Shown: positions 16,041-61,316, numbered from the stretch's first letter. The stretch: DNA of 61,316 bases from Candidatus Hodarchaeota archaeon (GCA_016839785.1 JAEOTQ010000030.1:1-61316); one strand, 5' to 3'. Notes: generated by a model from the letters alone, not told the origin. Made by a program: numbers and translations.

Positions 16041-16064
16041 TTTTGTCAAACAACTAGTTGAAAA

Positions 16065-16557: not shown

Positions 16558-16618
16558 ATCAAAACCTGTTCGGAAATATGCTCATTCACATCTAGATGGC
16601 GCTCTTCTATCGATTGAT

Positions 16619-33446: not shown

Positions 33447-36400
33447 TTGGATAAATTGTCATTGACTAATATGCCAAAACAAGCTAGATATATGCTCCTT
33501 TTTCTCTTAGTTTTATTTCTAGTTCTCACATCTTTTAGTTTAAATGAATTTACTAATTTTGATGATCCTAATCGCGAATCTATTTTATTACCAACATTAT
33601 CTGACCAAACAAATAATATGTCACAATATTATGAACCCAGAAATCCAGGCTATTCTATTCAACCCTTTCAGACCCCCAATATTCTATTTATTGTTGACAG
33701 TCCTTCTTCTCCAAATGTGGATAAAGATGTTCCGTTTTTTGATTTCATGACTATTGTTCTAAACTACAGCGTTACTTATCATGAAGCAAAAGATTCGTAT
33801 TCCTATGAAAATTTTGATGCCATTGTAATTTCTAGCTCTGTGGGAGAAGCTGGAACCGTTGATTCTTTGTCTGATGCTCCCATTCCTATTCTTACAATGC
33901 AGGCTGGACATTATGATGAATTTCAGCTCGGTGATGATTATAGCATAAAAGATACTAAAAGATACTGGATTTATAATAGCGATCATTACGTTTCGCAAAA
34001 TCTCCTTAATGATTCCACTTTGGAGGTATACTTTGATAATGATCCCGTTGGTTACATTACTGATTATGATTATGTACCAGAGGGAGCCGAGATTACTCTC
34101 ATTGCTGTAAGAGCTGACAAGAATTTTTATTATCCCTCCCAAGCAACTTGGTTAATTTTAGACAAGGGCGATAATAACTGGAATCTATTTCCGTCTCCTG
34201 AAAGGAGGGCCTTTTGGGGAGCTAGTTGGGGTCCAAGTTTAAATCCAACTGGATGGGATAGTTGGAATAGAACGTTAAGCTGGATCCTGTACGATGATGT
34301 GCCTGGAAATGCTACTCTACAAGTTGATGTCACGGACTTAGATAATAAAGCCGTTTATAATGCTCAAGTAACTCTAATGGGCTCTAGGAATCAATCAAGA
34401 ATTTGGATTCAGAATACTACAAGTTCAGGTATTTCAACTTTCACTAATATCCCCTATGGAATTTATAATATTACTGTGGAATATGAGGATACTATTAATA
34501 ACGATTTACAATTTATTGAAATCGCTGGAGAACGAACTTACTCCATTGAGACGTTTTTACAATATTTTGTTCAAGTAAATGAGTACAGTGATAATGATGT
34601 TCCTCTGATTACTAATATTCAATTTCATGCCTCAAATGATACATTTACAGCTGATATTTATGATGAAAGCACTTTAATTAATGTTAATCTCAGTTTAACC
34701 GCCAGATATTCGTCTAATGATACCATTGTGAGAAATTCTGTTTATAATATGGTTTCTATTGATGGAATTCATTATTACAATGATACTGCACTGCAAGGAT
34801 TACCCGATTCTGGTATTAACATTGTTTACAACGTTTCCGCTATTGATATTGCTTCAAATACAGAAGTATCAGATAATCAGGGCTTTACCCTAGGAGAGTT
34901 TAATGCTCCAATAATCCATTATTATAATGTTACTGATAATGAAGACGGATCATTAGTATTTTACGCTAATATCACGGATGAAGAAAGTCTCGTTCAAGAA
35001 GTAGTGTTGAGAATTAACAATACATATGAGAATATGTATCTGAATTCATCTGGTTTGTGGATTTTCGAAACTTTTGCTTATTATGGCGTTCTTTTGAACT
35101 ATTCTATTCATTCAGCAATCGATAGTGTTGGGAATGAAAATAATGACACTTTTTCTCCAAAATTTGGTCTAGTTACTCCACAAGACTCTTTTAGCCCTAT
35201 TATTTATGATTTGAGTTATAATCTTAGTGCTCATGAGGAAGGATTTGTTGTATTTAAAGCTAGAGTAGAAGAATTAAATGATGAATTTCAGAGTGGGGTC
35301 AATACAAGCAGTGTTTCAATAATGATTTCGATAAACAATGGAAGTTGGGTGAATTTCACACTTCCTATGTATGCTATTGGTGAAATCACATATGAATTTG
35401 AATATACATTCGATTTTAATGATACCGTATTCTATCAAATTATCGCTGCTGATTTGGCGGGAAATATTAATTGGGGTTATGAACACAACACTACCGTTGA
35501 TGATAATTCTATTCCCCAAATAGTCTTTAACGCCAAAGAATTTGGTAATGGTATTGTTGAATTTAATTCGACAGTGATTGACTGGCCTAATAATTCAACT
35601 TCGGCCATACTTTATTATACTCAGAACTATTTTGGTTCTTGGTCCAATATTTCTATGACTATAATTGATCAGAATCTATTCATTCAGCAAGTTCCTAATT
35701 TTGATTTTAGACTTCAGGATGTTTGGTATTATGCTACTGCTATTGACTCAGCCTTAAACGTATACGAACCGACTCCTGATCAATATCAAAAAATTACTCT
35801 AAGCGATTTAGTTGCTCCTGAAGTCTTCGTTGTAATAGAAAACTCTACTATAGTCGATGGCAAAATATCCATTACTACATGGGCAAATGATCTTTATGGG
35901 GATGTTTGGGATATCAACAACACCTTTTACATAAATTTCACGGAACAAGGCAGCACTACTCAATATGAAATGAATTATGATTCATTTTATTTCCATACTT
36001 TTGAACAAACGTTTAATTTTGGAGACGTAATCACTATTGAAGTTTGGACAACTGATAGTGAAGGTAATATAGGAGTAAAAAGCCGTACCATAATCATAGG
36101 AGACTTCTCTGCTCCTAAAATACTAGAAACTGGAATTGATGAATATCAAAATGGTACTGTGACTTTCTGGGCTGAAGTAATCGAATATTCTACTGGAAGT
36201 GGTCTTCCCACTGACCATTCTTCAATATCACTGGAATATGTATTCGTTTCAATGTTTAAGGAATCTTTGTCTTGGAATGGAACAGGAAACATTTATAGCT
36301 ATACAGTTTCAGGATTTATTCCAGGAAATGCCTTTAATTATCGAATAAGTGCTTACGATAATAATAATAACACTGTAATTACTCTCTGGAATATGGAAAC

Positions 36401-37835
36401 AATTCCAGACGAAACTCCTCCAATCTGTAATGATTTTGGTTACTCTGAAACCTTAATTAATCATTCTTTTTCTCGTCTCGATTTCTGGGTAAATTCAATT
36501 GATCTATTTGGCTCAATAAGTGGGGTTGACATTACTTTTTATTCTTTTAATGGTACAGGATTGACATCAACGACTGGAAAAATGACTGGTAATGGGCCCG
36601 ACTATTCTTATTCAATCCTGTTACCTTGTAATCATTCCTTCAATTATTCTATTCAGATTTATGATGGTGAACCAAATATTATCCAAGTTGGTAATACAAG
36701 TGTAAGAACATACTGGGGTCCAGTAATCATAGATGCAAACGTTATACAAATGACGGATGACACGGTGATAATCTGGGCAGATATATCAGACTGGGGATCA
36801 GGGGTAGGAGAAGTTGTTCTAGAATATGAATTTACACACATAGGAGGACAAGCTGCTCATGTGCAAGTTGAGACGGTTCCCATGGAGTTTAATGGAAGTT
36901 TATATTTGGCTAGTCTGACTTTTTCAGAGAGCGGTTCGTTAACATGGACTATTATTGCCAAAGATGATTCAAATACACTAATTGCTACTAGCCTGGCTAC
37001 ACAACCATTTATTATAAATATTCTTGGAGATAGTGTTGTTTGGGACGACATAGTACCTATAATCCTTGCAATCAGTGCCATTCCTTTAATTCTAGTGTTT
37101 GTAGTAGCTCGTGTTCGTAGAAGACGTCATAAAATTGCTTCTGTTAAAAAACAAAAAGAAAAAGATGTAACACAACGATTTACTGATGTTTTAAGTATCC
37201 GATCTATTATATGCCGGAATAACTTTGGAATGCCCTTTTATACTGAAAATTTTTTAGCAGAATCGCAAGATTTAGATTTAACAGCTGGATTAACATCAGC
37301 TGTATCTAGTTTAGTAACAGAAGTTTCGCAAAGAGCAATGAAGAAAGGAGAGTTCAATCTCTTAGAGAGAGAAGGATTTAGCATCTTGTCTCATCACGGA
37401 GAGAACTCAACAATCAGTTTGGTTTCAGAGGGAAGACTGAGTAGCTTCATGAAAGGAAAAATTGCTGAACTTCATGAAGCTATTGAGTCACGTTTCAGTC
37501 AACAAGAGTTGGAGGATACATCTTTAGGAGATTATCCTGAAGAAATTCGAGGAATGGTTTATAAACATTTGAACGTAGGTTTACTTAGTAAATTAACAGT
37601 AAATTTTGCACGATTTGACGAACAGGTGAAGAAATTTACAGAAAGTGAACGAAAACAGCTAAATTTTCTTAGAGAGCTCCCACGTATGAATGACGGACAC
37701 ATCCATTTGTACGTACCCACTTTTACCTCCTCTATTACTCATCATGGGGTCTCTCTTGTGAAAGCATACGCTCTATTGGAAAAGTGTTTCCGATTACGTA
37801 TTATCTATCCAATAAGTCTTGAACCAAGAGTTTGA
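33447..37835 (+). CDS. Giant type-I membrane protein: N-glycan-rich ectodomain with ~7 degenerate Ig-like repeats, one TM helix, and a cytoplasmic longin/roadblock-like domain
   Basis: 1462 aa with a signal anchor. The repeats begin P(I/E/K)I... The TM helix is IVPIILAISAIPLILVFVVARVRRRRHK. The cytoplasmic part reads LSIRSIICRNNFGMPFYTENF...LTAGLTSAVSSLVTEV... Confidence 0.85.
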   Translation: MDKLSLTNMPKQARYMLLFLLVLFLVLTSFSLNEFTNFDDPNRESILLPTLSDQTNNMSQYYEPRNPGYSIQPFQTPNILFIVDSPSSPNVDKDVPFFDFMTIVLNYSVTYHEAKDSYSYENFDAIVISSSVGEAGTVDSLSDAPIPILTMQAGHYDEFQLGDDYSIKDTKRYWIYNSDHYVSQNLLNDSTLEVYFDNDPVGYITDYDYVPEGAEITLIAVRADKNFYYPSQATWLILDKGDNNWNLFPSPERRAFWGASWGPSLNPTGWDSWNRTLSWILYDDVPGNATLQVDVTDLDNKAVYNAQVTLMGSRNQSRIWIQNTTSSGISTFTNIPYGIYNITVEYEDTINNDLQFIEIAGERTYSIETFLQYFVQVNEYSDNDVPLITNIQFHASNDTFTADIYDESTLINVNLSLTARYSSNDTIVRNSVYNMVSIDGIHYYNDTALQGLPDSGINIVYNVSAIDIASNTEVSDNQGFTLGEFNAPIIHYYNVTDNEDGSLVFYANITDEESLVQEVVLRINNTYENMYLNSSGLWIFETFAYYGVLLNYSIHSAIDSVGNENNDTFSPKFGLVTPQDSFSPIIYDLSYNLSAHEEGFVVFKARVEELNDEFQSGVNTSSVSIMISINNGSWVNFTLPMYAIGEITYEFEYTFDFNDTVFYQIIAADLAGNINWGYEHNTTVDDNSIPQIVFNAKEFGNGIVEFNSTVIDWPNNSTSAILYYTQNYFGSWSNISMTIIDQNLFIQQVPNFDFRLQDVWYYATAIDSALNVYEPTPDQYQKITLSDLVAPEVFVVIENSTIVDGKISITTWANDLYGDVWDINNTFYINFTEQGSTTQYEMNYDSFYFHTFEQTFNFGDVITIEVWTTDSEGNIGVKSRTIIIGDFSAPKILETGIDEYQNGTVTFWAEVIEYSTGSGLPTDHSSISLEYVFVSMFKESLSWNGTGNIYSYTVSGFIPGNAFNYRISAYDNNNNTVITLWNMETIPDETPPICNDFGYSETLINHSFSRLDFWVNSIDLFGSISGVDITFYSFNGTGLTSTTGKMTGNGPDYSYSILLPCNHSFNYSIQIYDGEPNIIQVGNTSVRTYWGPVIIDANVIQMTDDTVIIWADISDWGSGVGEVVLEYEFTHIGGQAAHVQVETVPMEFNGSLYLASLTFSESGSLTWTIIAKDDSNTLIATSLATQPFIINILGDSVVWDDIVPIILAISAIPLILVFVVARVRRRRHKIASVKKQKEKDVTQRFTDVLSIRSIICRNNFGMPFYTENFLAESQDLDLTAGLTSAVSSLVTEVSQRAMKKGEFNLLEREGFSILSHHGENSTISLVSEGRLSSFMKGKIAELHEAIESRFSQQELEDTSLGDYPEEIRGMVYKHLNVGLLSKLTVNFARFDEQVKKFTESERKQLNFLRELPRMNDGHIHLYVPTFTSSITHHGVSLVKAYALLEKCFRLRIIYPISLEPRV

Positions 37836-42207: not shown

Positions 42208-45200
42208 TTGAACCTGCCATATCCAAATGCCGCTCTAAAAAAGGTATTTTTCCTGATGATTATACTTAGTATTAGCACTAACCATGCTACTGGAGCACTA
42301 TCAAGTAATCTTAGCACTCCTACAATTAATCCTGGGATTATTGCATATTATGATCCATCTGATTCAATTGTTCAGCAGATAGTTACAGAATTTGACAAAA
42401 TTATTCAGCCTTCTTATTCATCCATAAAGCTACAGCCAATACATTCCATTATGGAATTACTCTACCAAACAAAGAAACAAGGTTACATCAATCTATACTT
42501 TTTTCACGGTACTGAAAAAGGAATGTCTATTGCTGATGTAATTGTACCTTGGTCAGATATTTCGATCGTGATCAATGAATCTCCAGTTAATGAGCATATA
42601 ATCTTGTCTTGTTATTCAAATATTCTTGAGCCACTTTTAAAACAGACAAAAGGAGTAATGACTACTGAAGGGGAGAAAGATGCAAAAGTTCTTCTCGTTG
42701 ATGCCCTCCTGTCCGTTGTCTCAATACTTCAGGAAAGCAATAGCACTGTGAAAAGGGAGGCCGCAGAAAGAGTCCTCTCAAGTACATTTGACTTTATTCA
42801 AGCAAATATTGCAGATTTAATAGTTCGGAGTCTATTTCCGATTGAACCAATGAGTGCAACTGCAATTACTTTACCAGAGTATTCAGGTTATGCAGGGCCT
42901 GTTGGTCTGATTATAGATGCTATTTTGGGTGCATTTCAAGGACAAACATTAACTGTCGGAGGGGAATATGAAAGTAGTGTTGAAGATTCGGGGTACGGAA
43001 CGGCAGAGGGTGGTGTATCTGCTGCATTTGGACTTGAATGGAGTTTTTCTCTTTCAGTATTATCTGAGGATACAGTAGCTGGCAATGTATTCATTGCGTT
43101 TTCAACACAGCAATCAGGATTAACTGGAACACTATTAGAAGCATTGGCAGGAGTAGAAATAGCTGTGGAGGGTGAAGGAGATTTTACTTTGAGAATCATT
43201 ACCGACCCAGTTTCCCGTGTAGAAGTGATTGAATGGCATCTCAGAATTAGAATTACTTTGAGTCGAACCATTGGTTTGTATGATCTTATTGAGAAAGTCT
43301 GGCCCTCTGCGAAAAAAACTGTAGATAAACTGCCGAAAAAAATTCGAGGAAAAGTTAAGCGTGCTCTTAACCGGGTCAAAATTACACCTTATTTAGGTGG
43401 AGAGTTTGAAATCTTTTCAAATGCTGATGGAAACGATGAATATGTCATTGCAGTATTTTTTGGTGTATCAATGAATGTAGATATCCCAGTTGTTGATGTT
43501 GGGGGTGGAATAGAAGTTGAATTAGCATTTCATTTTACGAGTCAGGGTAATTTCTTTGTACTGACACTCGAATACGGATTTGAAATTGATGTCCCGTGGC
43601 CTTTCAAAGATAAGCGAAATAAATGGACCCGCTCATGGCAGATTGGACCAGAATCCTCAAATGGTAAACAGATGAATACTGATTCAGATGAGGATGGCTT
43701 GACGGACAGCTTTGAGGTTGAAATTGGGACTGATCCTAATAAATTAGACAGTGATAATGATAGCTTACCTGATGGCGTGGAATTAACAGAATATCAAACT
43801 ATTCCAACAAATCCTGATTCCGATAATGATGGGCTCCTTGATGGTGAAGAGGTGAGTTATTTTGAAGGTAAACATGTAGATCCACTTGGAGATTATGATA
43901 TAGATGGTTTTCCCCATGTTTTAGATCCAGATAGTGATAATGATGGTCTCTTAGATGGCGAAGAGGTCAAAGGACAAAATCAGTATGGATTCATCTCCAA
44001 TCCGCTTAAAATCGATACAGATGGAGATGGACTAACGGATAAGGAGGAAGTAGATGATTCGCTTGAAATTATTGTTGATGGAAGTGTACGTTCTGTGCAC
44101 TCAAATCCTATGGATTATGATAGTGATGGTGACTTTCTACACGATTTAGAAGAAGTAATGATGAATTCAGACCCAATTATGCCAGATACAGATACAGATG
44201 GCATCAACGATTTTGAAGAAGCGCGATTATTTTCATTATACTGGAATCAAACAGATACTGACGGGGATGGCCTTTCCGATGGTGAAGAAATCTTGGGTAC
44301 TCCTGTTAATCTGTATGATCATAATACTGCCTCATATCAAGATGTAATCCTCACTTCTAACCCACATTTGCCAGATTCCGATGGAGATGGTCTTTCTGAT
44401 TTTGAAGAAACATCGACTGGAAGTGAAATTGTGTGGCAAGGTACTTCATTAACAGTTTTCAGTAATCCTCGACAAATAGATACAGACGCTGATGGACTTA
44501 GTGATTACGAAGAAGTTGTTATCGGTACAGATTTACGACAAACAAAACCAGATGTGAATGATTCAGATAATGATGGTCTTAAAGATAGTGAATATTTAAT
44601 ATTTGGAACAGATCCTATAGATGATGATTCAGATAATGATACGATTTCGGATGGATTAGAAGTCCTTTATTGGCATAGTAAACCATTAAAAAATGATAGT
44701 GATGCTGATCGGTTACTCGATGGAGACGAAATTGCGAATTTTACCTTTTTTGATCCTTCTTTTAGTCCATTAAGTAATTATGACGGTGATGCAGACACAG
44801 GATTGTTGGACTTCGATTCTGACGGAGGCGGTGTAAGTGATGGAGCAGAAGTCTTGGCAAATAACGCAACTTACACCTTTAACTTAACTGATCCTGCTGA
44901 TGATAAATGGGCTGATAGTGATCATGATGGAATGCCTAATCAGTGGGAAGAAAAATATGATCTACTCCCATTTGATCCAATTGACAATACAACTGATGAC
45001 GATTATGATCTTCCTGATAGTCTATCCAACGTAGAAGAATACCAATATGGGACATCACCACGTGCTTCAGACACGGATAAGGACTTTCTGAATGATGGAG
45101 AAGAGGTTCTTTATTGGAAGAGTGATCCGTTAAAAAAAGATAGCGATGGAGATGGATTAACCGATGGTGATGAAATCCCTTACATGTTATCAATACTACC

Positions 45201-47553
45201 ATCGATTTTCGTTCCTTCAAGTAATTTTGATGGTGATACTCTTACTGGGATAATGGATAATGATTCAGATAATGATGGGTTACTAGATGGAACTGAAGAA
45301 AGACTTAGTGCCTCGGGGAAATACGGTGGTAGACTCGTGAATGCCACAGACTCAGATACCGATGGCGATGGCCTTAATGATGGAACCGAAGTACAACTTT
45401 ATCAAACTGATCCTACACTCGTCGATACTGATTCTGACATATTGACTGATTTTGAAGAGATAATGGGACAAAATATACTATGGCAAGGTAGTCCAGTTAG
45501 TGTCTATCCAAATCCGAATGATCCTGATAGTGATAATGATGGGTTAACTGACCATGAAGAAGTTATCTTCTGGAATAGCTTCCCTACTGATCCAGATAGT
45601 GATGATGATCAAATCTTCGATGGAGATGAAGTAGTTTATTTCATGACATATGGTGGATTAACACCAGTGGATGATTTTGATTTTGATGGAATAGCAGGTA
45701 TACAAGATGATGACTCTGATAACGACCAGCTATTGGATGGAGAAGAATTATCGCTGGGAACCAACCCCACGTTATCTGATACAGATAATGATATAATGAC
45801 TGATTATGAAGAAGTTCGTGGTTACGGGTTTAATTATATCGATCCTTTTACTGGATCACCAGAACAGCTCCTCTATTTTACCGATCCATTAAATAATGAT
45901 ACTGATGCAGACGGATTATTTGATGGAATTGAAGTAAATGGAATTCCTTATTATTCAGGAGTTGTATATACCGATCCAACAAATATCGATACTGATGGTG
46001 ATGGGCTGATTGATGGATTTGAGGTTAGTGGAATTGATATAATCGTCATGAATAATAATCTAACTGTAATTACAAATCCCATGCACCCAGATACTGACTT
46101 CGATGGGATTAGCGACTTTGAAGAAATCTATAGTTGGAACTGGTATTCTAAACGCACTTATGAGGCGAAAGAGCGTACGGGAGTCATTACTATCGGGAAT
46201 GCAGAAGGGCCTCCTTTACAAGTCCAGGTGACTCGTGCTACCCAATATAGTAGCATCGCAGCACTCAGGGGTGGATATATTACTGATCCGACTGACAATG
46301 ATACTGATGATGATGGTTTAATAGAAGGTACTGAGAAGTATGGAGTAACAAACTATACTTATATTAAATATCCTACTCACGACTATGAAGCTATCTCTAC
46401 TCCTGTGATTACTAACCCTACAAATAATGATACCGATGGTGATGGATTATCTGATGGTTTTGAAGTTAATACTACCAATCCCCATGTTAGCGATACTGAT
46501 CAAGATGGGTTGAGTGATTATGAAGAAATCAATACGTTTCATACCAATCCTAATTCCTATGATACAGATAATGATCTTTTGAACGACAAATATGAGCTTA
46601 TTATCCAATATTATAACTCAACACTTGCCGTCAATAAAACAGATCCTCGAAATTCTGATACTGATAATGACGGTTTACCTGATGGATTTGAAAAATCCAT
46701 TTTACACACTCATCCGCTGAATAACGATTCTGATTTCGATCTTTTAACAGATGGGGACGAAGTAAATAGTTATCAAACAAATCCATTTTTAAACGATACT
46801 GATAATGATGGACTTATTGATTCCCTAGAAGTGAATAGCTATTTTACTGAGCCAACTGAGCCTGATACTGACGCTGATGGAATTTATGATGGAGTAGAAG
46901 TCATCTATTATTCAACTGATCCATTAATTGCTGATGAAAATAGTGATGGGATATTGGATGGGTGGGACTATGATTTTGATAATGATGGTTTATCGGATTA
47001 TGAGGAAACAGTTGTCTATGACACTTTATATTATGAAAGTGATACTGATGACGATGGTTTGATGGATGGGGAAGAACAGAATTACTTTGAACAATGGGGT
47101 GAAGATCCTGCAGGAGATCCAGATAAAGATGGGTTTTCGAGTCTTCATGATAATGATTCTGATGCTGATGGAATTTATGATGCAGATGAATTCGATTTTG
47201 GTACCAATCCCGCTAAAACAGACTCTGATTTCGATGAATTGAGTGATTATGAAGAAATTTTCGTTTTTCTAACTGATCCACTGAAAGCAGATACAGATAA
47301 TGATGGATTGTCTGATTCTGAGGAATTAACAATTGGAACTGATCCTCTGGACTCTGATTCTGATAATGATGGGTGGATAGATGGTGAGGATTCGGAACCG
47401 TTAAATTTCGCTATTCCCAATCTGCTTATTGGACTTGTTGGAATTCCAAGTGTAAGCCTTCTCGCGCTCGCTGTTTTTTTCAGGAAAAGAATCTTCTTCA
47501 AGTCTCAAGATCTATGGAAGAAATTCCGATCGAAAAATGGTTCTGATGCCTGA
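42208..47553 (+). CDS. Giant secreted/anchored protein: N-terminal ~480-aa region (possible caspase/CHAT-like module), then dozens of thrombospondin type-3-like Ca-binding repeats, then a C-terminal TM anchor
   Basis: 1781 aa with a signal peptide. The motif D-x-D-x-DG-(L/I)-x-D-x-x-E recurs from about aa 490 to 1730. The tail reads LLIGLVGIPSVSLLALAVFFRKR. Confidence 0.9.
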   Translation: MNLPYPNAALKKVFFLMIILSISTNHATGALSSNLSTPTINPGIIAYYDPSDSIVQQIVTEFDKIIQPSYSSIKLQPIHSIMELLYQTKKQGYINLYFFHGTEKGMSIADVIVPWSDISIVINESPVNEHIILSCYSNILEPLLKQTKGVMTTEGEKDAKVLLVDALLSVVSILQESNSTVKREAAERVLSSTFDFIQANIADLIVRSLFPIEPMSATAITLPEYSGYAGPVGLIIDAILGAFQGQTLTVGGEYESSVEDSGYGTAEGGVSAAFGLEWSFSLSVLSEDTVAGNVFIAFSTQQSGLTGTLLEALAGVEIAVEGEGDFTLRIITDPVSRVEVIEWHLRIRITLSRTIGLYDLIEKVWPSAKKTVDKLPKKIRGKVKRALNRVKITPYLGGEFEIFSNADGNDEYVIAVFFGVSMNVDIPVVDVGGGIEVELAFHFTSQGNFFVLTLEYGFEIDVPWPFKDKRNKWTRSWQIGPESSNGKQMNTDSDEDGLTDSFEVEIGTDPNKLDSDNDSLPDGVELTEYQTIPTNPDSDNDGLLDGEEVSYFEGKHVDPLGDYDIDGFPHVLDPDSDNDGLLDGEEVKGQNQYGFISNPLKIDTDGDGLTDKEEVDDSLEIIVDGSVRSVHSNPMDYDSDGDFLHDLEEVMMNSDPIMPDTDTDGINDFEEARLFSLYWNQTDTDGDGLSDGEEILGTPVNLYDHNTASYQDVILTSNPHLPDSDGDGLSDFEETSTGSEIVWQGTSLTVFSNPRQIDTDADGLSDYEEVVIGTDLRQTKPDVNDSDNDGLKDSEYLIFGTDPIDDDSDNDTISDGLEVLYWHSKPLKNDSDADRLLDGDEIANFTFFDPSFSPLSNYDGDADTGLLDFDSDGGGVSDGAEVLANNATYTFNLTDPADDKWADSDHDGMPNQWEEKYDLLPFDPIDNTTDDDYDLPDSLSNVEEYQYGTSPRASDTDKDFLNDGEEVLYWKSDPLKKDSDGDGLTDGDEIPYMLSILPSIFVPSSNFDGDTLTGIMDNDSDNDGLLDGTEERLSASGKYGGRLVNATDSDTDGDGLNDGTEVQLYQTDPTLVDTDSDILTDFEEIMGQNILWQGSPVSVYPNPNDPDSDNDGLTDHEEVIFWNSFPTDPDSDDDQIFDGDEVVYFMTYGGLTPVDDFDFDGIAGIQDDDSDNDQLLDGEELSLGTNPTLSDTDNDIMTDYEEVRGYGFNYIDPFTGSPEQLLYFTDPLNNDTDADGLFDGIEVNGIPYYSGVVYTDPTNIDTDGDGLIDGFEVSGIDIIVMNNNLTVITNPMHPDTDFDGISDFEEIYSWNWYSKRTYEAKERTGVITIGNAEGPPLQVQVTRATQYSSIAALRGGYITDPTDNDTDDDGLIEGTEKYGVTNYTYIKYPTHDYEAISTPVITNPTNNDTDGDGLSDGFEVNTTNPHVSDTDQDGLSDYEEINTFHTNPNSYDTDNDLLNDKYELIIQYYNSTLAVNKTDPRNSDTDNDGLPDGFEKSILHTHPLNNDSDFDLLTDGDEVNSYQTNPFLNDTDNDGLIDSLEVNSYFTEPTEPDTDADGIYDGVEVIYYSTDPLIADENSDGILDGWDYDFDNDGLSDYEETVVYDTLYYESDTDDDGLMDGEEQNYFEQWGEDPAGDPDKDGFSSLHDNDSDADGIYDADEFDFGTNPAKTDSDFDELSDYEEIFVFLTDPLKADTDNDGLSDSEELTIGTDPLDSDSDNDGWIDGEDSEPLNFAIPNLLIGLVGIPSVSLLALAVFFRKRIFFKSQDLWKKFRSKNGSDA

Positions 47554-52906: not shown

Positions 52907-53110
52907 TTATTTTGTGGCTGCTAGTATAACATCTGACTCTTTTACGGTTTTTCGTCCATTGTGACGTGCAATTTCAACTGAGTATTTGGCTAAATTCATA
53001 CCATATTCAGTTAAAATCTCATTCAATCGGTTAATTGCACCCGCGGAAACACGGAAGGCACCGGCGGTACGAATGAGTTTTTCTACACGTGCTCGTGCAA
53101 ATCCAGTCAT
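52907..53110 (-). CDS. Archaeal histone (HMf family)
   Basis: The sequence is MTGFARARVEKLIRTAGAFRVSAGAINRLNEILTEYGMNLAKYSVEIARHNGRKTVKESDVILAA. I prefer the ATG at 53110 because AGGTGA lies 6 nt upstream. The track starts at GTG 53119. Confidence 0.9.
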   Translation of the reverse strand: MTGFARARVEKLIRTAGAFRVSAGAINRLNEILTEYGMNLAKYSVEIARHNGRKTVKESDVILAATK

Positions 53111-53455
53111 ATTTTTCACCTTTTCTCGATATTAAGTTCTACTGAGCCATTTGATGGACTCAGTGATTACGATAATCCTCTATATGTTTATAAGTTTTAT
53201 TCTACAACAATGCACGTTCTAGATATATCGATGTTACATTTTGCATTCAGATTGATATTGCTAGCTATGAAAAATACATTTTCACAATCTTCAAGCTAAA
53301 CTAGATTATGTATTATGTAATCATTGAAGATAGATACTCTATTCAAATATGAATTGAAAAAGACGATTACTTTACCTAATGCTTCTATTCTCCATGAGAA
53401 ATAGATCAGAAAATATTTACGGGTCACTTAGAAAAAGAGGGGGAAGAGAGAGTTT

Positions 53456-54751: not shown

Positions 54752-55294
54752 CTAGGATGGAAGAAACTTCTTCCCACAATGGGTACAGAAGATACTTCCT
54801 TTCTCTAACTGATTTCCACAAGATGAGCATTGCGTTCCGCTTTTTAGACCAGAAACTCTCTTTTTATTTACTTCCTTAGTAACATCTTCGGGAGGATAAT
54901 ATCTTTCCTTGACTTTACCTATTGGTCTTTCTTCAATTAACGTACTCATAGTTCCAGCAATCAGAAAAAATCCATAAGCAATCACAATAATGTATCCAAA
55001 CGATAAAACAGGCCAAAAAATTCCAATTAAAACAGTAAAAGCCCCAATACCACCAATTAGTGTTATAACTGCCTCTTTCTGAGATTTACTCAGAGTAAGT
55101 CGACCAGGTTCACTCGATGTTTCGACAAATAAACCATTAAGGACCCCAGCTACTAGAAAGAAAGGGAAAGCTATCACAATAGACAATCCAAAATCTATAT
55201 GCCCAGAAAAAATCGATAATAATATAGGAACAACTCCAATTCCACCTATAAATGTGGTAAGAGCATCTTTGTAATTCTTCTTCAATCTTGACAC
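54752..55294 (-). CDS. Membrane protein (internally duplicated 2-TM module) with C-terminal zinc ribbon
   Basis: TFIGGIGVVPILLSIF... is duplicated as TLIGGIGAFTVLIGIF... The C-terminus reads CSSCGNQLEKGSIFCTHCG. Confidence 0.65.
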   Translation of the reverse strand: MSRLKKNYKDALTTFIGGIGVVPILLSIFSGHIDFGLSIVIAFPFFLVAGVLNGLFVETSSEPGRLTLSKSQKEAVITLIGGIGAFTVLIGIFWPVLSFGYIIVIAYGFFLIAGTMSTLIEERPIGKVKERYYPPEDVTKEVNKKRVSGLKSGTQCSSCGNQLEKGSIFCTHCGKKFLPS

Positions 55295-55434: not shown

Positions 55435-56091
55435 CTACTCTGGTTTTTTCTCTTTTATCTTCGTTTGTGGAGTTTTAGTTTTGATTATAGTTGGGGGAAT
55501 TGATTTTGATTGCTTTGGTAATTTTTTAATATTAGATTTGGGTGGGGTCTTGTTAGTAATGGTTTTTTTAGGAATTGTTTTTGATGTGAGTGTAATTGGA
55601 GTTGAACTCGATTTCCTCTTTGGACTTTTATCTTGAATGGCTTGTGGTGGTTTTGCGTTAATTATTCGATCTGGCTTCTTTTTCGATATACCTCTTCTTG
55701 TTGGAGGCGTACTTTTCCGATCTTCTACCTCAGGTAATCGTCTTGGAATTTTTCGATTTACTGGATCCTTTTTACGCTGTGATTTAGGTAAACTTCCTTT
55801 GGTGGATGGAATTGTTGATTTTTTCTTATTCTTGGACTGAGTTACAGGAGGAAGATAGTTTTTATTGGTTTTTTGTTCTTCTTCCCTCTTTTTTATTCCA
55901 TGATTGGTAGGATAAGTAACGGATTCTTTTTTTAAGATGAATTTTTCAATATTTCGTGAGGGAGGTAGTTTAAATTGCTTTTCCGAGTCATCAGGAGTTT
56001 TCCCTGTGATGGAGGGAATTATTTTTTGTGCTGGAATCTTCTCCCTAATGGTGTCCTTCGGTTTTTTTGATCGAATGTTTAATCGAACCAC
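55435..56091 (-). CDS. Lys/Pro/Thr/Ser-rich, strongly basic low-complexity protein
   Basis: 218 aa dominated by K, P, T and S (for example KKKPDRIINAKPPQAIQDKSPKRKSS). No hydrophobic core is evident. Confidence 0.55.
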   Translation of the reverse strand: MVRLNIRSKKPKDTIREKIPAQKIIPSITGKTPDDSEKQFKLPPSRNIEKFILKKESVTYPTNHGIKKREEEQKTNKNYLPPVTQSKNKKKSTIPSTKGSLPKSQRKKDPVNRKIPRRLPEVEDRKSTPPTRRGISKKKPDRIINAKPPQAIQDKSPKRKSSSTPITLTSKTIPKKTITNKTPPKSNIKKLPKQSKSIPPTIIKTKTPQTKIKEKKPE

Positions 56092-56184: not shown

Positions 56185-56769
56185 TTATTTTCCCAGAATA
56201 AATCCAATTCCAGAGAATATAAAGAATAGTCCATATAATATTCCAAGGAGATCAGATGCAAATGCTCCAGCAATTAGGAAGAGGAGACCAAAGATAAAAA
56301 AAGTAAATATTGCAGTCCATTCGGCAGAAGGCCCCCTCTCAGACTGTGATGTAATCCGAATGAACTGATAGCGAGTGAAACTTCGGATTAACAAAGCTGA
56401 TGAAACTACTAGATAAGGAAATGCGAGAAGTGAGGGTACTGTAATATATAGGTCAAGAAATTCATTTGCAGGTAACACATTCACCTCGAAAGCTAATAAT
56501 ACCTCTTCAAATATAGGGAAAAGAGGACTAACAACAATAATTATCAGTGGAATAATATTTGCAAGAGATAAGAAGTAAATTTCGTTTAAAGTGGCGTGGT
56601 GATCGACGTAGTAAAAGATCCTTAGGAAGTACAATATAGTAATCGCGGTATAAATAGATAAGAAAAGAATATTTAAGGCTAAAGCGTCTTCATTCTGAAT
56701 AAAAAAGAAAATAGTAGCTGATACGCCAATAAGCATAATAAACCAAGCGATGGAATGTCGTATAGCCAT
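56185..56769 (-). CDS. Polytopic membrane protein, last gene of the ubiquitin-like operon
   Basis: 194 aa with about 6 TM helices. Its start lies 18 nt after the RING-gene stop. Confidence 0.6.
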   Translation of the reverse strand: MAIRHSIAWFIMLIGVSATIFFFIQNEDALALNILFLSIYTAITILYFLRIFYYVDHHATLNEIYFLSLANIIPLIIIVVSPLFPIFEEVLLAFEVNVLPANEFLDLYITVPSLLAFPYLVVSSALLIRSFTRYQFIRITSQSERGPSAEWTAIFTFFIFGLLFLIAGAFASDLLGILYGLFFIFSGIGFILGK

Positions 56770-56787
56770 AAGTATTCTGAAATCTCC

Positions 56788-57900
56788 TTAATTTTTGTAT
56801 TTCTTTTGGAACATTTGTATAATTTTCTGATAACTAGGACCTGATATGCGAATCATCTTGACATTGTTCACGGGTTTATTACAACGACTACAAATATTGG
56901 CTACTTGAAGCCACTTTTGAAATTCATTCGCATGACTAGGATGTTTGCAATGAGGACAAATTACTACTTGTTTGTCTGATTCTGTAGGAAATTCATAGCA
57001 GTAAATACACCGAAAATCATCTTTAGAAATGTTCTGGCCTGCTGGGGTCAAGCTGGCTATGAGAGCAGGTGTTAATTTCCTTTTAGTTCTCCTGGGCATT
57101 TGTATGGGAGGAGATACTTGAACCGTTGATCTTTGGGGAGTCCTCCTCGCACTAATTTGATCCCTGGTAACACGTGTTGGCTGGGAAATTGTACTACTAT
57201 TTGCCCTGGAAGCTTGTGAAGGGCTTATCCGAGTCCTACGACGTTGAACTCCTCTTATGGAAGGTCTAGAGCTACGTCTAAAAGGAATAATCATAAATTT
57301 CATCATATAATTCTGAATGAATGTCAAAATGGTAAATAACAAGAAAAATAAGGATGAAAGTTCTATTGTTCTTTGATCAAACCAGAAAATAGTCAAAATT
57401 ACTAGAAAACCAGTATTAAATACAATTAATGATTCAGAAGGGAAGCGACGTCGAAATATAAAGATATTCGGATAGCTTCCAGAATAATATCTCCTAACTA
57501 GGATCCCAAGAATAATGAAGAAGGGTAAACATATAATTAGACTAAATAAGTTGAGATACAGATAAAATGAATCTAGCTGTATTAATTCCAAACTGAGATC
57601 TAATTCAAGAAACATAGTCTGTATAACATTCTGCGAGTCACCTAAAGTAGCAGTAAATGCCAATAGACTCCCCCCAAGTGCAATCAATGAGGGAATGGTA
57701 ATAAAAATAGCTGAAGCTAGTGGTGCATTATATGAACGATAATAACGCCATTCATCTATTAGCTTGATAAGTAAGACACTTACGATAGTAAGATAAATGA
57801 GTGTTAACGAGGCGGTACTCTGCGGGTTTACGATTTGGCTTAAAAAAGCAAAGACCAATCCAGTGATAAAGACAGAGATATAGACATTTCTTCCGACCAA
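56788..57900 (-). CDS. Polytopic membrane protein with C-terminal RING-H2-like zinc finger (E3-like)
   Basis: It has about 7 TM helices and a basic linker. The finger reads CIYCYEFPTESDKQVVICPHCKHPSHANEFQKWLQVANICSRC (C-x2-C-x13-C-x-H-x2-H-x2-H-x13-C-x2-C). Confidence 0.75.
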   Translation of the reverse strand: MVGRNVYISVFITGLVFAFLSQIVNPQSTASLTLIYLTIVSVLLIKLIDEWRYYRSYNAPLASAIFITIPSLIALGGSLLAFTATLGDSQNVIQTMFLELDLSLELIQLDSFYLYLNLFSLIICLPFFIILGILVRRYYSGSYPNIFIFRRRFPSESLIVFNTGFLVILTIFWFDQRTIELSSLFFLLFTILTFIQNYMMKFMIIPFRRSSRPSIRGVQRRRTRISPSQASRANSSTISQPTRVTRDQISARRTPQRSTVQVSPPIQMPRRTKRKLTPALIASLTPAGQNISKDDFRCIYCYEFPTESDKQVVICPHCKHPSHANEFQKWLQVANICSRCNKPVNNVKMIRISGPSYQKIIQMFQKKYKN

Positions 57901-57923
57901 ATAGAATTCACGACCTCATCTTC

Positions 57924-58736
57924 TCAATCATAATCATATTCTAAGAACATCGTTTTTCCTTCTGCTAAGGGCAGAAGTGTACTGATTAATTCTGGAAGAC
58001 TTTCTAAAGGACAGTTTAAAACTTCATAACGGGGTTCTTCCCATTTCTTCAAATCTTTTTTCAACCTGAAGATTTTAAAACCATAGTATCTTCGGGATAT
58101 TTTAGTTGGATCAATGACCAGTGCTATTGGTGCTGATAGTTGAGAACCTTTAGTGCCAAGTCGTTGATACCGAACTTGCGTTTTATAATCAGTTTTACTC
58201 ATGAATGCTCCATAAGAAGGATGCGAATGATACCATCCAAGTATCATTTCTTTTTTCTTTCTACTCTCGTTATAAACTCGTACCATGCTTTGAGGATCCT
58301 CAATTTGGGCGTTGACATTTGTCCCATGCCCAACTGGGAATGCATCTGTAATAACTAGACATGCAAGTGGTGTGTCTTTATTTTCAATATGACCAGTTAA
58401 GAGGCCTATGACTTCAACCCACTCTGACTTGGAAATGGTAGAGTTTGCATATTTTAATGCATGAAGACTTAGTCTGATATAGGCTTTTAACTGCAGTTTT
58501 ACTCTTAATGGATCAATTTCAGGATCCAAATCATCTAAGTCTTCTATTTCCTCTTTTCTTTTTGAAATTCCTTTTTTTAAGGTGAGAGTCTCTTCTGTAT
58601 GAGGTTCCTCTTCAGCTTCAGACGGCGTCGGAAATTTCAATGTAAGAGTTGAATTTTCGGGATTATAATTCATAGCTGTATCCCTTAGAAGAAGTTCGAA
58701 TAAATTTCGTGATTGCGAATCCTTTTTCTCTGGCAT
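57924..58736 (-). CDS. JAB1/MPN/Mov34 (JAMM) metalloprotease, Rpn11/CSN5-like
   Basis: An upstream Glu (WVEVIGLLTGH) is present. The JAMM motif HSHPSYGAFMSKTD (HxHx7Sx2D) is intact. Confidence 0.9.
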   Translation of the reverse strand: MPEKKDSQSRNLFELLLRDTAMNYNPENSTLTLKFPTPSEAEEEPHTEETLTLKKGISKRKEEIEDLDDLDPEIDPLRVKLQLKAYIRLSLHALKYANSTISKSEWVEVIGLLTGHIENKDTPLACLVITDAFPVGHGTNVNAQIEDPQSMVRVYNESRKKKEMILGWYHSHPSYGAFMSKTDYKTQVRYQRLGTKGSQLSAPIALVIDPTKISRRYYGFKIFRLKKDLKKWEEPRYEVLNCPLESLPELISTLLPLAEGKTMFLEYDYD

Positions 58737-58781
58737 TAGCTATACCCCTTTGGTTGGCTCATTACGAGTCTCATTTAATCA

Positions 58782-59309
58782 TTACCACTTCTTTTTTGCA
58801 TATTTTTTCGTAATTTTTCGAGCCTTTTCTTTGAATTTACTCTTATCTTTCAAATATTCCATTGCTGCTTTTTTATTAAATACATCATGAGGGTTAGTAT
58901 AAGCCTCATCGATGTTAAACATCGCTAAAATCGAGTAAACTACCGTTGTAATATTCTTTGAAGGAGACCACCCTTGTGGTTTTCCTACTAAGTCGGGGTC
59001 GACAAGTCCAAGACAAATATTCCGTTTTCCCAAATATTCATCTGGCTTTGGCCAAAAGTTTGGGTGCCAAATAGGTGTATGCAATCGAACAAAAGGAGGA
59101 GAGTAAGGATAGTTTGGACCAAACTTGATCTCAAGCATAAATTTTCCCTCTTGATATGGGGTGCCTTTTGGACCTTCAAGAAGCACAGCTAAGTGTTCTA
59201 CGCTTTTTTTCTCTCCAGGGAAAGCTTTCAGCTGTTTAATTGTTTTCTGCTTATATAAAGTTTTTAATTGATTATAATCTTCTGCAATACGTTTAATGCG
59301 AATTGACAT
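58782..59309 (-). CDS. E2 ubiquitin-conjugating enzyme (UBC fold)
   Basis: It has the HPN triad (TPIWHPNFW) and a catalytic Cys context (RNICLGLV). 175 aa. Confidence 0.85.
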   Translation of the reverse strand: MSIRIKRIAEDYNQLKTLYKQKTIKQLKAFPGEKKSVEHLAVLLEGPKGTPYQEGKFMLEIKFGPNYPYSPPFVRLHTPIWHPNFWPKPDEYLGKRNICLGLVDPDLVGKPQGWSPSKNITTVVYSILAMFNIDEAYTNPHDVFNKKAAMEYLKDKSKFKEKARKITKKYAKKKW

Positions 59310-59315
59310 GATAAA

Positions 59316-60554
59316 TTAACCTTCCAGTTTTAATGTAAGATATATTTGGGATCCATCGTCAAAACCTGTCACAAGAACTGTCTCACAATCCTTTATTCCA
59401 GCTTCAGAAATAGTCTGGTCCAAAAATATTTCTCCAAGTTCCGAAGAATCTATTCTAAAGATCATAGGTGGAAATTCAGTATCTATTGGATATTTTTTAT
59501 CTTGAGAAAATCTTTCTATTAATTGTGACAAACGAAATTTTCGTTTTACTTTAATACGAAATAATGGAGTTCTATCTTTTCCACACATCTCGCATTTAGG
59601 ATTTCGAGGCTTCTCTATTTCATAGAATTTTCCAGTTAATCCATTATAAATCAGATAATTTAATTGAATATTTCCTAATCTATTTTTATGCATGGGAGTA
59701 TGGAGATGATGTAATATCTTGACGGCTTCTTGTGATTGTAGGGAGGCCATCACACAGTTAATCGTTATAACCGTGGGTTCGTGATTATCAATTATCTGTA
59801 TAACTTGATTAACAGAAAACGATTTTTCTTGTGGGAAGTGTTCCTTCAGAAGTTTATTTGCGTAAGAGACTACATCCTGAACTTCATTCGAATGTAATAT
59901 GTTCGCTGGTCTTCCATGTTTTTGCTCGAAGCGTAGTTGTCCTTTTAAAATGCAATGAGCCGGTCTACGAGGTTTACCAACTAGTGTACAGGCACCAAGT
60001 TGATCTTGTGCGCGTTCGGTTAATGGATCACATTCCAAGCATGCATTAGTGAATGGAGAAACTACGTATGCATGTCCGTTGTAAACTGCAGTCCCTGCAT
60101 CTATAAGAAATTTTTTGTTATGTACTGCTCGTCTATTTAACTCTGATCTAGCTTCGATAGAATCCAAGCCAGCGATATACATATCTACATCGTTGTAAAT
60201 CCGAGGGGGGACATCTTGTAATGGGCAATCAAAGGCATCAATTCTAATAAACGGGTTCATTTCCCTTAATTTTTTTGCCGCAATTTTCGCTTTGGAAGCC
60301 CCTTCGGGAGCCCCGATAAACAATATTTGGCGATTTAAATTAGAATATTCAATCGTATCAAGATCCACAAGTATTAGATGCCCAACTCCGACCATAGCTA
60401 GGTTTTTGGCAATTTCAACACCTAGACCTCCGATACCTGCAATGAGGACAGAGCTCTGTTTCAATATTTCCTGATTCCATCCAGGAAGTCGAAATTGACG
60501 ATCAAAACGCCTTTTTTCTTCCTTTGTAAGCGTTTTACTTGTGAAATTTGTCAT
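59316..60554 (-). CDS. E1-like activating enzyme (ThiF/MoeB/UBA fold) with C-terminal beta-grasp (UFD-like) extension
   Basis: It carries GIGGLGVEIAKNLAMVGVGHLILVDLDTIEYSNLNRQ. CxxC pairs CLEC and CEMC are present. An SD-like GAGGAG lies upstream. Confidence 0.9.
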   Translation of the reverse strand: MTNFTSKTLTKEEKRRFDRQFRLPGWNQEILKQSSVLIAGIGGLGVEIAKNLAMVGVGHLILVDLDTIEYSNLNRQILFIGAPEGASKAKIAAKKLREMNPFIRIDAFDCPLQDVPPRIYNDVDMYIAGLDSIEARSELNRRAVHNKKFLIDAGTAVYNGHAYVVSPFTNACLECDPLTERAQDQLGACTLVGKPRRPAHCILKGQLRFEQKHGRPANILHSNEVQDVVSYANKLLKEHFPQEKSFSVNQVIQIIDNHEPTVITINCVMASLQSQEAVKILHHLHTPMHKNRLGNIQLNYLIYNGLTGKFYEIEKPRNPKCEMCGKDRTPLFRIKVKRKFRLSQLIERFSQDKKYPIDTEFPPMIFRIDSSELGEIFLDQTISEAGIKDCETVLVTGFDDGSQIYLTLKLEG

Positions 60555-60579
60555 ACTAATTACTCCTCTGGTAATGGGA

Positions 60580-61077
60580 TTACCCTGCAGTACTCACCGG
60601 AATGATAAGAACTTCTAGTCCGTCTTCGAGATCATAGTTTGATAATACATCATCCGAGTCCAACGTTCGTCCACTAATCGAAAGGTGAAAATCCTGCGGA
60701 TCCAATGCAAAGATTTCCCCAATTGTTTGTGCTAATTCCCGAACAGACATCTCAGGATCAACCGTTAGTTTTTCTTGTTTTTCGCCAGGACCAATTGTTG
60801 AGCGGAAAAACAAAGTTAGTCGTTCTCCACTTGGTACCTTGGAACGTGGAACTTTAGATTGTATTGATGGATCATCCTGTTCCTCCTCCCCTTCTTCTTC
60901 AAATTCAATAAACTCTTCATTTTCCGACATAATTACATCTTCCCTAGTATTCTCTGCAATAAATACTGGAGAAAATTCATCCTTCGATAAGAAAGGTGTT
61001 CCAGTTTTTAAAACATGTAAAGAGAATACAATCAGTTTCATAGTAATCAATCCATAAATATCTATCTGAATTTTCAA
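60580..61077 (-). CDS. Ubiquitin-like beta-grasp protein with acidic N-terminal extension, ending ...IIPVSTAG-stop
   Basis: The C-terminal ~80 aa read RLTLFFRS...LTVDPEMSVRELAQTIGEIFALDPQDFHLSISGRTLDSDDVLSNYDLEDGLEVLIIPVSTAG. The real start may be the ATG at 60930 (MSENEEF...). Confidence 0.75.
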   Translation of the reverse strand: MKIQIDIYGLITMKLIVFSLHVLKTGTPFLSKDEFSPVFIAENTREDVIMSENEEFIEFEEEGEEEQDDPSIQSKVPRSKVPSGERLTLFFRSTIGPGEKQEKLTVDPEMSVRELAQTIGEIFALDPQDFHLSISGRTLDSDDVLSNYDLEDGLEVLIIPVSTAG

Positions 61078-61179
61078 TTAAATGCTGGTTTATTAGAACT
61101 GGAGAGTTTATGTCTAGTATTATTTGTAAGTGCTATTTTGTTTTAGGAAAAATTGAGAAAATGGGAATTAATCCTCTGA

Positions 61180-61316
61180 TTAATTCCAGCCTGCGGTTGA
61201 ATGAGGAATTAAGAGGATTTCATCACCATTTTCGATTCCATAATCTCCAATTGGAGCACTTTCATCAAGAGTACGGCCTGCATGAGATAAGTGGAAATCA
61301 TCTGGATCTAATCCAA
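61180..61316 (-). CDS. Second ubiquitin-like gene (3' part only; 5' end outside window), ending ...LIPHSTAGWN-stop
   Basis: My own translation is ...GLDPDDFHLSHAGRTLDESAPIGDYGIENGDEILLIPHSTAGWN-stop. It is clearly paralogous to 60580-61077. Confidence 0.7.
   Translation of the reverse strand, partial: GLDPDDFHLSHAGRTLDESAPIGDYGIENGDEILLIPHSTAGWN

Follow-up and report, generated by a model that had tools for sequence, protein, structure and literature searches.

Near one end of a 61,316-nucleotide stretch of DNA from a Candidatus Hodarchaeota archaeon (GCA_016839785.1 JAEOTQ010000030.1:1-61316; hereafter the window), a run of co-directional genes encodes two ubiquitin-like modifiers (Ubl1 and Ubl2), an activating enzyme (E1), a conjugating enzyme (E2), a JAMM metalloprotease, a six-transmembrane (six-TM) protein with a RING-like finger that is the candidate ligase (TM-RING, or E3), and a second six-TM protein of 194 amino acids, TM194 (Table 1). 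A sequence-only reading of this DNA had described the run as a eukaryote-like ubiquitylation operon of the kind known from Caldiarchaeum and Asgard archaea, and sequence, profile and fold evidence gathered for each part agrees with that description. The coordinates bear out seven co-directional genes with short gaps, of 25 nt between Ubl2 and E1, 6 nt between E1 and E2, 45 nt between E2 and JAMM, 23 nt between JAMM and TM-RING, and 18 nt between TM-RING and TM194. The gap of about 100 nt between the two modifier genes did not hold, as it stems from an open reading frame (ORF) started at TTG; conservation among orthologues begins at MSENE[ED]F, that is, at the ATG at 60930, so the spacer measures about 249 nt. 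The operon was also thought to continue past the window edge, which is true of the 5' part of Ubl1 but of nothing further: Ubl1 is 117 amino acids long in B3_Heim and in L083, a JGI metagenome contig 97.6% identical to the window over 7.3 kb, and since the upstream neighbor lies on the opposite strand in both, the operon begins at Ubl1, with only about 70 codons outside the window. The nearest E1 proteins are 86 to 93% identical, and those with names are labeled Hodarchaeales or Heimdallarchaeota B3_Heim; these proteins and contig L083 place the window in a genome of Hodarchaeales (Heimdallarchaeia, Asgard).

Table 1. Features of the operon block, which spans 54.7-61.3 kb of the 61,316-nt window (coordinates are those of the whole window; all features lie on the minus strand)
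Feature	Coordinates	Strand	Basis or remark
Ubl1, 3' part only (45 codons plus stop)	>61316..61180	-	Translation; cut by window end
Ubl2, 116 aa	60930..60580	-	Pfam ubiquitin 8.8e-5; conserved start; family profile against ubiquitin
E1, 412 aa	60554..59316	-	Pfam ThiF 2.8e-50; motifs; family profile
E2, 175 aa	59309..58782	-	Pfam UQ_con 5.5e-27; Ubc13 match 2.3e-16
JAMM/MPN+ metalloprotease, 270 aa	58736..57924	-	Pfam JAB 6.8e-16; 6fju match
TM-RING (E3), 370 aa, whole gene	57900..56788	-	Hydropathy, AlphaFold2 model, orthologue alignment
E3 membrane domain, residues 1-208	57277..57900	-	Hydropathy, loop charges, AlphaFold2 model
E3 basic disordered linker, residues 209-291	57028..57276	-	Low pLDDT, Lys plus Arg count
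E3 RING-like finger and C-terminal helix, residues 292-370	56788..57027	-	RNF24 match, invariance, Foldseek
TM194, six-TM protein, 194 aa	56769..56185	-	AlphaFold2 model, hhalign with controls
Hairpin and T-run	61164..61187	-	Hairpin of 10 bp that overlaps the stop codon of Ubl1, then CATTTTCTCA; terminator- or attenuator-like
Lys/Pro-rich disordered protein, 218 aa, possible further member	56091..55435	-	Same position in 14 Hodarchaeales loci
Membrane protein with C-terminal zinc ribbon, 180 aa, possible further member	55294..54752	-	Pfam Zn_ribbon_3 1.3e-7

The E1 profile was used to fetch 80 genome loci, whose ORFs were labeled with hidden Markov models (HMMs); counts over related loci are given out of 82. 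About 70 of them, from Hodarchaeales, other Heimdallarchaeia and Loki-type metagenome-assembled genomes (MAGs), share the order Ubl-E1-E2-JAMM-TM-RING, over a range in which E1 identity drops from 88% to 43%. In the first tier, with E1 identities of 68 to 88% (Hodarchaeales), the arrangement is Ubl1-Ubl2-E1-E2-JAMM-TM-RING-TM194 followed by a Lys-rich protein. The second tier, at about 50% (other Heimdallarchaeia, including AB_125), mostly has E2-JAMM-TM-RING-TM194 with Ubl-E1 placed apart, and a few of its loci carry two modifiers. The third, at 43 to 47% (labeled Promethearchaeota/Lokiarchaeia, and others), has Ubl-E1-E2-JAMM-TM-RING; here TM-RING is the last co-directional gene and TM194 is absent, so that among the loci examined TM194 is confined to Heimdallarchaeia. 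TM-RING is the most constant neighbor of E2 and JAMM in all lineages. The operon family is widespread in Asgard archaea, and the window is an ordinary example of it. The features that had been singled out as special to this operon are all present, but none is unique to the window: the duplicated modifier recurs across Hodarchaeales and at a small number of further loci of Heimdallarchaeia, and both the modifier end other than Gly-Gly and the membrane-embedded RING protein occur in all Asgard groups sampled. In many Loki-type loci (L054-L079), a second Ubl ending in S-[T/I/V]-A-G lies about 1.5 to 6 kb upstream of E1, and a protein of about 264 amino acids that also matches the Ubl profile adjoins it on the opposite strand.

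The catalytic motifs named in the sequence-only reading were all located. In the E1, GIGGLG stands at residue 40 and DLDTIEYSNLNRQ at residue 64, which supply the Gly loop and the D-x-D...N-R-Q segment of an adenylation domain, and the Pfam ThiF match scores 171 bits (cut-off 28.1). A catalytic-Cys motif, GACTLVG (C189), lies in a domain that follows the adenylation core and is without counterpart in MoeB or ThiF; C189 is invariant in 28 homologues and aligns with the catalytic Cys632 of human UBA1 (PICTLKNFP). When a family profile built from these 28 homologues was scored against eukaryotic E1s, MoeB and ThiF, the best scores were to UBA1 (9.7e-48), UBA3 (9.4e-47, colinear over residues 31-361) and SAE2 (6.6e-43), followed by MoeB (2.6e-38, over residues 11-178 only), ThiF (1.8e-28), UBA5 (6e-22) and ATG7 (2.3e-13). 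Invariant CxxC pairs at 172/175 and 321/324 presumably correspond to the structural zinc site common in this superfamily. The E1 ends in a domain of about 85 residues, for which Pfam Rad60-SLD gives a weak match (E 0.075) and an hhalign comparison with the Ubl profile gave no signal.

The E2 has a UBC fold with HPN at residues 82-84 and its catalytic Cys99, which aligns with the active-site Cys of Ubc13; small insertions flank the Cys on both sides, and the UQ_con match reaches 94.5 bits (cut-off 27). In the JAMM protein, E108 and HSHPSYGAFMSKTD at residues 170-183 (HxHx7Sx2D) make up an intact JAMM/MPN+ zinc site behind an N-terminal extension of about 80 residues; its JAB match scores 58.6 bits (cut-off 22.5), and among solved structures it is most closely related to 6fju, the Rpn11-like protein of Caldiarchaeum (5.5e-12), with CSN5 and RPN11 next.

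The modifiers had been credited with a beta-grasp fold, and profile comparison confirms the relationship to ubiquitin. A single Ubl falls slightly under the Pfam ubiquitin cut-off (22.6 bits against 25.4), whereas a family profile built from 27 diverse operon Ubls matches ubiquitin in the PDB at about 17 bits per repeat, with mono- and di-ubiquitin entries at 1e-4 to 1e-11, and aligns with human ubiquitin in hhalign at 92% probability (E 5.8e-7). Ubl2 consists of an acidic disordered N-terminal tail with two SKVP motifs, then the ubiquitin-type beta-grasp domain, and ends ...IIPVSTAG without any further residue. The Ubl1 ORF, matched by the profile at 1.1e-19 and present as a full 117-residue orthologue in L083 and L001, ends ...LLIPHSTAGWN, that is, with a two-residue WN tail beyond Ala-Gly. 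Throughout Hodarchaeales the tandem modifiers form two orthologous groups (...IPHSTAG and ...IPVSTAG). A C-terminal Gly-Gly was not found among the Ubl ORFs listed from the 82 loci, all of which end in S-[T/I/V]-A-G with or without 1 to 8 further residues and so retain the terminal Gly for adenylation; the family as a whole is therefore invariant in lacking a Gly-Gly end, and since about one third of the listed Ubls carry such extra residues, part of the family needs a processing protease.

The N-terminal tails of the Ubls comprise 35 to 45 disordered residues, in which an acidic stretch precedes one or two SK[TV]P motifs, an arrangement that recalls the acceptor lysine in the SUMO-2/3 tail. 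In Ubl2 the tail occupies window positions 60826-60930, and SK[TV]P is kept in this otherwise variable segment in nearly all Ubls (L001-L082); a minority paralogue type is without the SK[TV]P tail (for example, L022 9588-9959 and L029 1604-1924). The Lys/Pro-rich protein directly downstream of TM194 in 14 Hodarchaeales loci is disordered and contains 22% Lys and 13% Pro. Its K[TIVS]P motifs echo the SK[TV]P of the Ubl tails and number 6 to 9 where shuffles lead one to expect about 2, a three- to fivefold enrichment, and the protein could be a dedicated substrate or adaptor.

The candidate ligase contains six hydrophobic helices with positive-inside loops, and hydropathy together with loop charges predicts that both its N and C termini are cytoplasmic. 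Its C-terminal tail (residues 197-370) is strongly basic, with 33 Lys plus Arg. An AlphaFold2 model built with 40 homologues has a mean predicted local distance difference test score (pLDDT) of 77, mostly 80 to 95 in the membrane part, which runs through three helices, a beta-hairpin (TM3-TM4), one helix, a short loop and two helices; pLDDT is below 50 in the linker (residues 210-273), and a compact C-terminal domain follows. The finger in that domain reads C298-x2-C301-x13-C315-x2-C318-x4-H323-x2-E326-x10-C337-x2-C340, with W330. It had been taken for a RING-H2-like finger with eight ligands, and eight Cys/His residues do occur in the window copy, but 44 of 63 orthologues have Tyr or Phe in place of one of these, H320. 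The residues invariant in all 63 are C298, C301, C315, C318, H323, C337 and C340, together with P321, E326 and W330, so that seven Cys/His ligands are accompanied by a Glu at ligand position 6. In a phmmer search the finger matches the RING-H2 of human RNF24 at 5.2e-6, in an alignment that sets H323-x2-E326-x3-W330 against H-x2-C-x3-W and thereby places E326 at ligand 6 and W330 at the E2-contacting Trp. The top Foldseek matches in the PDB are nearly all RING or U-box domains (Rad18, TRIM37, Rbx1, E4B, TRAF6, RNF4 and EL5), with probabilities of about 1.0 and target-normalized TM-scores of 0.5 to 0.8; the E-values (0.04 to 0.5) are modest because the query was the full-length model. Sequence pattern, RING/U-box fold and an invariant aromatic residue downstream of ligand 6 mark the finger as a variant RING. 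The finger profile (window 56866-57027) also resembles, below threshold (E about 0.6), the zinc domain at the C terminus of the intraflagellar-transport proteins IFT144/WDR19 (CPHC-x-FPA...E...C-P-x-C), a likeness that may be due to chance.

It is conceivable that the loss of one canonical zinc ligand has turned the finger into that of a pseudo-E3, a protein that does no more at the membrane than receive or scaffold E2~Ubl or tagged proteins, with conjugation proceeding independently of an E3 or by a ligase encoded elsewhere. The replacement of the sixth Cys by Glu in 63 of 63 orthologues would fit this idea, as would the failure of Pfam RING models to score the finger and the modest Foldseek E-values. 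We nevertheless consider it improbable, because the Glu, invariant as it is, occupies the very position of the ligand and is able to bind zinc, U-boxes function without zinc at all, the invariant W330 is the Trp that RING-H2 and RING-CH domains use for E2 binding, and no other gene accompanies E2 and JAMM as constantly in all lineages as TM-RING does.

The extra polytopic partner, also listed among the special features of this operon, proved to be a six-TM protein that is common to Heimdallarchaeia and that, on profile and model evidence, is a RING-less paralogue of the E3 membrane domain. Its AlphaFold2 model (pLDDT 81.6, predicted TM-score 0.77) has the same order of helices and hairpin as that domain, and hhalign aligns TM194 residues 1-136 with E3 residues 1-144 over 134 colinear columns (E 2.6e-5, 75% probability). 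Over the membrane domain by itself the alignment scores 38.2, compared with 15.5 for the reversed alignment and 14.7 ± 2.5 (maximum 20.3) for 30 block shuffles, and an iterated HMM seeded by the TM-RING protein also recruited TM194 proteins; it is these scores over controls and the shared element order that lead us to paralogy. The link is visible only at the profile-profile level and in the models: a HMMER search with the TM194 profile over 1.84 billion representative proteins returned only 23 proteins, all of about the same length, and neither TM-RING proteins nor anything larger. Among solved structures, the TM194 model found nothing better than E 0.94, and the 50 top PDB matches listed for the full-length E3 model included none to the membrane domain. 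A derlin, rhomboid or Hrd1-like fold for TM194 and the E3 membrane domain was considered and gained no support from the PDB comparison, nor did the solved structures searched reveal a membrane domain homologous to that of Hrd1/Doa10-type ligases of endoplasmic reticulum-associated degradation (ERAD). All database records examined for the E3 and TM194 are annotated as hypothetical proteins without a Pfam domain, so domain-based counts of Asgard E3s would miss them.

That the only E3 of the operon is polytopic and has a paralogous membrane partner, and that the modifier ends, like Atg8 and UFM1, in something other than Gly-Gly, would also be compatible with a lipid target, in which case the E3 would present the amine of a lipid head group to E2~Ubl. 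Precedents are Atg8-phosphatidylethanolamine (PE) and the ubiquitin-PE made with the yeast membrane RING ligase Tul1. The enzymes speak against this, since the E1 is UBA1/UBA3-like and the E2 UBC-like, not Atg7-like and Atg3-like (ATG7 2.3e-13 against UBA1 1e-47), as does the match of the Ubl profile to ubiquitin, and archaeal lipids with amine head groups are undocumented for these organisms in the material examined; we rate a lipid target as very improbable.

Bacterial Bil operons possess a similar gene set (Ubl, E1, E2 and JAB), and PADLOC models for Cap2-type E1-E2 proteins (best 5.5e-18) and BilD (1.2e-6) match the E1 here, as JAB models match the JAMM protein, so that an anti-virus defense module of the Bil or CBASS-Cap2/Cap3 kind, instead of a housekeeping system, had to be weighed. 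These matches cover the shared adenylation and JAB cores and reach 63 bits, against 166 for eukaryotic E1s, while the E2, the Ubl, the RING protein and TM194 match no PADLOC model. The gene order is kept in nearly every related locus, synteny extends to L001 and L083, and the divergence tiers broadly follow the taxon labels, a pattern unlike that of defense islands, and there is accordingly little to recommend a defense role, which we hold to be a remote prospect. As for a MoeB/ThiF-type sulfur-carrier pathway with the Ubl as thiocarboxylate donor, over its N-terminal 170 residues the E1 does match NCBIfam MoeB/ThiF models best (6.8e-36, far under curated cut-offs), but the chance of such a pathway is negligible, given that colinearity of the E1 with UBA3 extends over 330 residues and takes in a Cys domain absent from MoeB, that the predicted transcript also encodes a JAMM protein, a RING-like E3 and an E2 of canonical type, that neither a rhodanese domain nor cofactor-biosynthesis genes occur near the operon, and that a MoeB/ThiF-like E1, the outcome named beforehand as adverse to conjugation, is not what emerged, the profile favoring UBA1, UBA3 and SAE2 and C189 aligning with UBA1.

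We consider it probable, then, that the operon encodes a genuine E1-E2-RING cascade for Ubl conjugation at the cytoplasmic face of the Hodarchaeales cell membrane. Two paralogous modifiers of the ubiquitin family would be made, Ubl1 with a tail after Ala-Gly and Ubl2 ending directly in Ala-Gly, and the JAMM protease would trim the Ubl tail to expose the C-terminal Gly and later strip the tag from targets. The E1, probably a homodimer of UBA3-like build, would adenylate this Gly, load the modifier onto Cys189 and hand it to Cys99 of the UBC-type E2. The RING-like finger of the six-TM protein may then recruit E2~Ubl, with the long basic linker keeping it at the membrane surface, and in Heimdallarchaeia the co-expressed RING-less paralogue would probably pair with the E3 in the membrane. 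The outcome would be the tagging of lysines on membrane or membrane-proximal proteins. This scheme rests partly on the reconstituted cascades of Caldiarchaeum and Helarchaeia (PMC5654768; bioRxiv 10.1101/2023.07.25.550441).

Several points weigh against this interpretation or limit its reach. What the comparisons establish is the conserved gene order, the catalytic motifs and how they align with solved enzymes, the RING or U-box fold of the finger, the topology and the paralogy of TM194; the chemical steps, the dimer states, the contact between E3 and partner, the substrates and the fate of tagged proteins are all inferred. A ubiquitin-fold domain at the C terminus of the E1 is possible, and contact between E3 and TM194 is probable by paralogy and adjacency. 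With Glu as the sixth ligand, one zinc site may be weak or absent, so ligase activity is not guaranteed, and Pfam RING models at threshold recognize 0 to 1 of 40 TM-RING orthologues. UBA1/UBA3-like E1 enzymes are not known to accept Ala-Gly termini. Taxon labels are inconsistent in several MAG records, and the Asgard breadth of the family is given by record titles and by E1 identity tiers; because of these inconsistencies the tiers, not the names, are what we rely on.

Our results also leave room for a more far-reaching speculation, which as a whole we regard as rather unlikely: that this Asgard-wide operon is a prokaryotic forerunner of eukaryotic membrane-embedded ubiquitin ligases. [quoted passage not shown]

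Beyond the core genes, the region around Ubl1 may carry regulatory information. The spacer between Ubl1 and Ubl2 contains the hairpin and T-run, and hairpins with T-runs occur at the Ubl1 3' end in other Hodarchaeales loci (L002-L020) with the structure kept and the sequences unrelated, which suggests a terminator or attenuator that would allow separate expression of Ubl1, or its expression at a higher level than the enzymes. Scanning the window for Rfam families and tRNAs gave no matches, and a sigma-70 promoter scan gave fewer matches than shuffles, its bacterial consensus being uninformative for an archaeon. At the other end, the run of co-directional genes finishes with the one for the 180-residue protein, which has three or four TM helices and carries its zinc ribbon at the C terminus; beyond it a convergent histidine-phosphatase gene closes the block. 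The 180-residue protein is found only in the four closest loci and is therefore probably no core member. About 2 kb downstream of the operon lies a gene for an archaeal histone-fold protein of 70 amino acids (52907-53119, minus strand), in a neighborhood that is kept in B3_Heim and L083.

Elsewhere in the window, positions 16000-20300 have a G+C content of 0.40, compared with about 0.33 in the remainder, and a radical-SAM/SPASM enzyme with a PqqD-like domain (17383-18708) adjoins a 500-residue ORF without a Pfam match; this segment may be a peptide-modification cluster. Two very large ORFs, 42208-47553 and 33447-37835, encode a 1,781-residue protein with many bacterial TSP3 repeats and a 1,462-residue protein with a weak match to alpha-2-macroglobulin MG3, both probably surface proteins.

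Asgard ubiquitin systems are a main line of evidence that eukaryotic protein tagging predates eukaryotes. Here the only ligase encoded by the operon family is a membrane protein, which would mean that tagging of the ubiquitin type took place at the membrane earlier than the rise of eukaryotes; if this is true, a defined set of five or six proteins would make it testable how ERAD-like quality control and ubiquitin-directed membrane sorting originated. The invariant Ala-Gly end and the Glu at a zinc-ligand position offer experimental handles on E1 specificity and on RING chemistry, respectively.

Operons with Ubl, E1, E2, RING and JAMM genes are established for Aigarchaeota and Asgard archaea, and Asgard ubiquitin-system genes have been surveyed repeatedly, so the operon type as such is already known. 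In both archaeal cascades reconstituted so far, small RING proteins were assayed in solution with Gly-Gly ubiquitins (PMC5654768; bioRxiv 10.1101/2023.07.25.550441). We found no description of a polytopic E3, a 194-residue partner, a Glu ligand or an Ala-Gly end in Asgard operons in the literature searched, which covers part of the relevant papers, so that prior mention elsewhere is possible; as far as that literature goes, the polytopic E3, its paralogous partner and the Ala-Gly end would be new.

Likeness in the modifier tail suggested at one stage a UFM1-type system, and Asgard Ufm1 homologues were reported in 2026 (PMC12962969). The tail L-[LI]-I-P-x-S-T-A-G (with or without WN) is in register with R-I-I-P-R-D-R-V-G-SC of human UFM1, a modifier likewise without Gly-Gly, which ends in Val-Gly and is made with a two-residue tail. 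We rejected the idea on the Ubl profile comparison and on the type of E1 and E2. The profile aligns with UFM1 at 2% probability (E 0.024), as opposed to the 92% obtained with ubiquitin; the E1 is far nearer to UBA1/UBA3 (1e-47) than to UBA5; the E2 has HPN, a motif that UFC1, to our knowledge, does not have; and the E3 is RING-like rather than UFL1-like. The combination of UFM1-like modifier, UBA5-like E1 and UFC1-like E2 is thus not what this operon encodes.

The closest parallel in gene content is the Caldiarchaeum subterraneum operon, which comprises ubiquitin, an E1-like, an E2-like, a small RING finger and an Rpn11-like JAMM protein and was reconstituted in vitro, its Rpn11-like enzyme both processing and deconjugating the archaeal ubiquitin (PMC5654768). 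Both operons unite five functional classes, the JAMM protein described here is nearest to the Caldiarchaeum Rpn11-like protein among solved structures, the Ubl profile scores about 1e-5 against 6fnn, 6fj7 and 2mqj, structures of the Caldiarchaeum Ubl, and some modifiers in either system need C-terminal trimming. The Caldiarchaeum E3, however, is a small RING protein for which the paper does not mention TM segments, and its ubiquitin ends in Gly-Gly (PMC5654768), whereas the Asgard operon has a 370-residue six-TM E3 with Glu as ligand 6, an Ala-Gly modifier with an N-terminal tail of 35 to 45 residues and a RING-less membrane protein that is paralogous to the E3. The Helarchaeia cascade of E1, E2 and RING E3, which is linked to ESCRT, resembles it in being an Asgard E1-E2-RING cascade encoded in an operon, with a pro-modifier whose short C-terminal tail must be removed, but its ubiquitin ends in Gly-Gly, its RING E3, purified for assays in solution, binds UEV-Vps23 through an N-terminal loop, and its genes belong to an ESCRT cluster (bioRxiv 10.1101/2023.07.25.550441). 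The E3 here is membrane-integral, and no ESCRT genes occur within 10 kb of the operon in the neighborhoods of relatives examined.

In architecture, the TM-RING protein comes nearest to the eukaryotic polytopic RING ligases of the Hrd1/gp78, Tul1 and RNF121 type. It differs from them in a membrane domain without detectable homology to solved structures, the Hrd1 and Doa10 complexes included, and from eukaryotic RING-H2 domains in having Cys and Glu, not His and Cys, as ligands 4 and 6. What it shares with these ligases is a multi-TM domain followed by a C-terminal finger, cytosolic by prediction, with the pattern H-x2-[ligand]-x3-W, and the closest sequence match of that finger is the RING-H2 of a human protein, RNF24.

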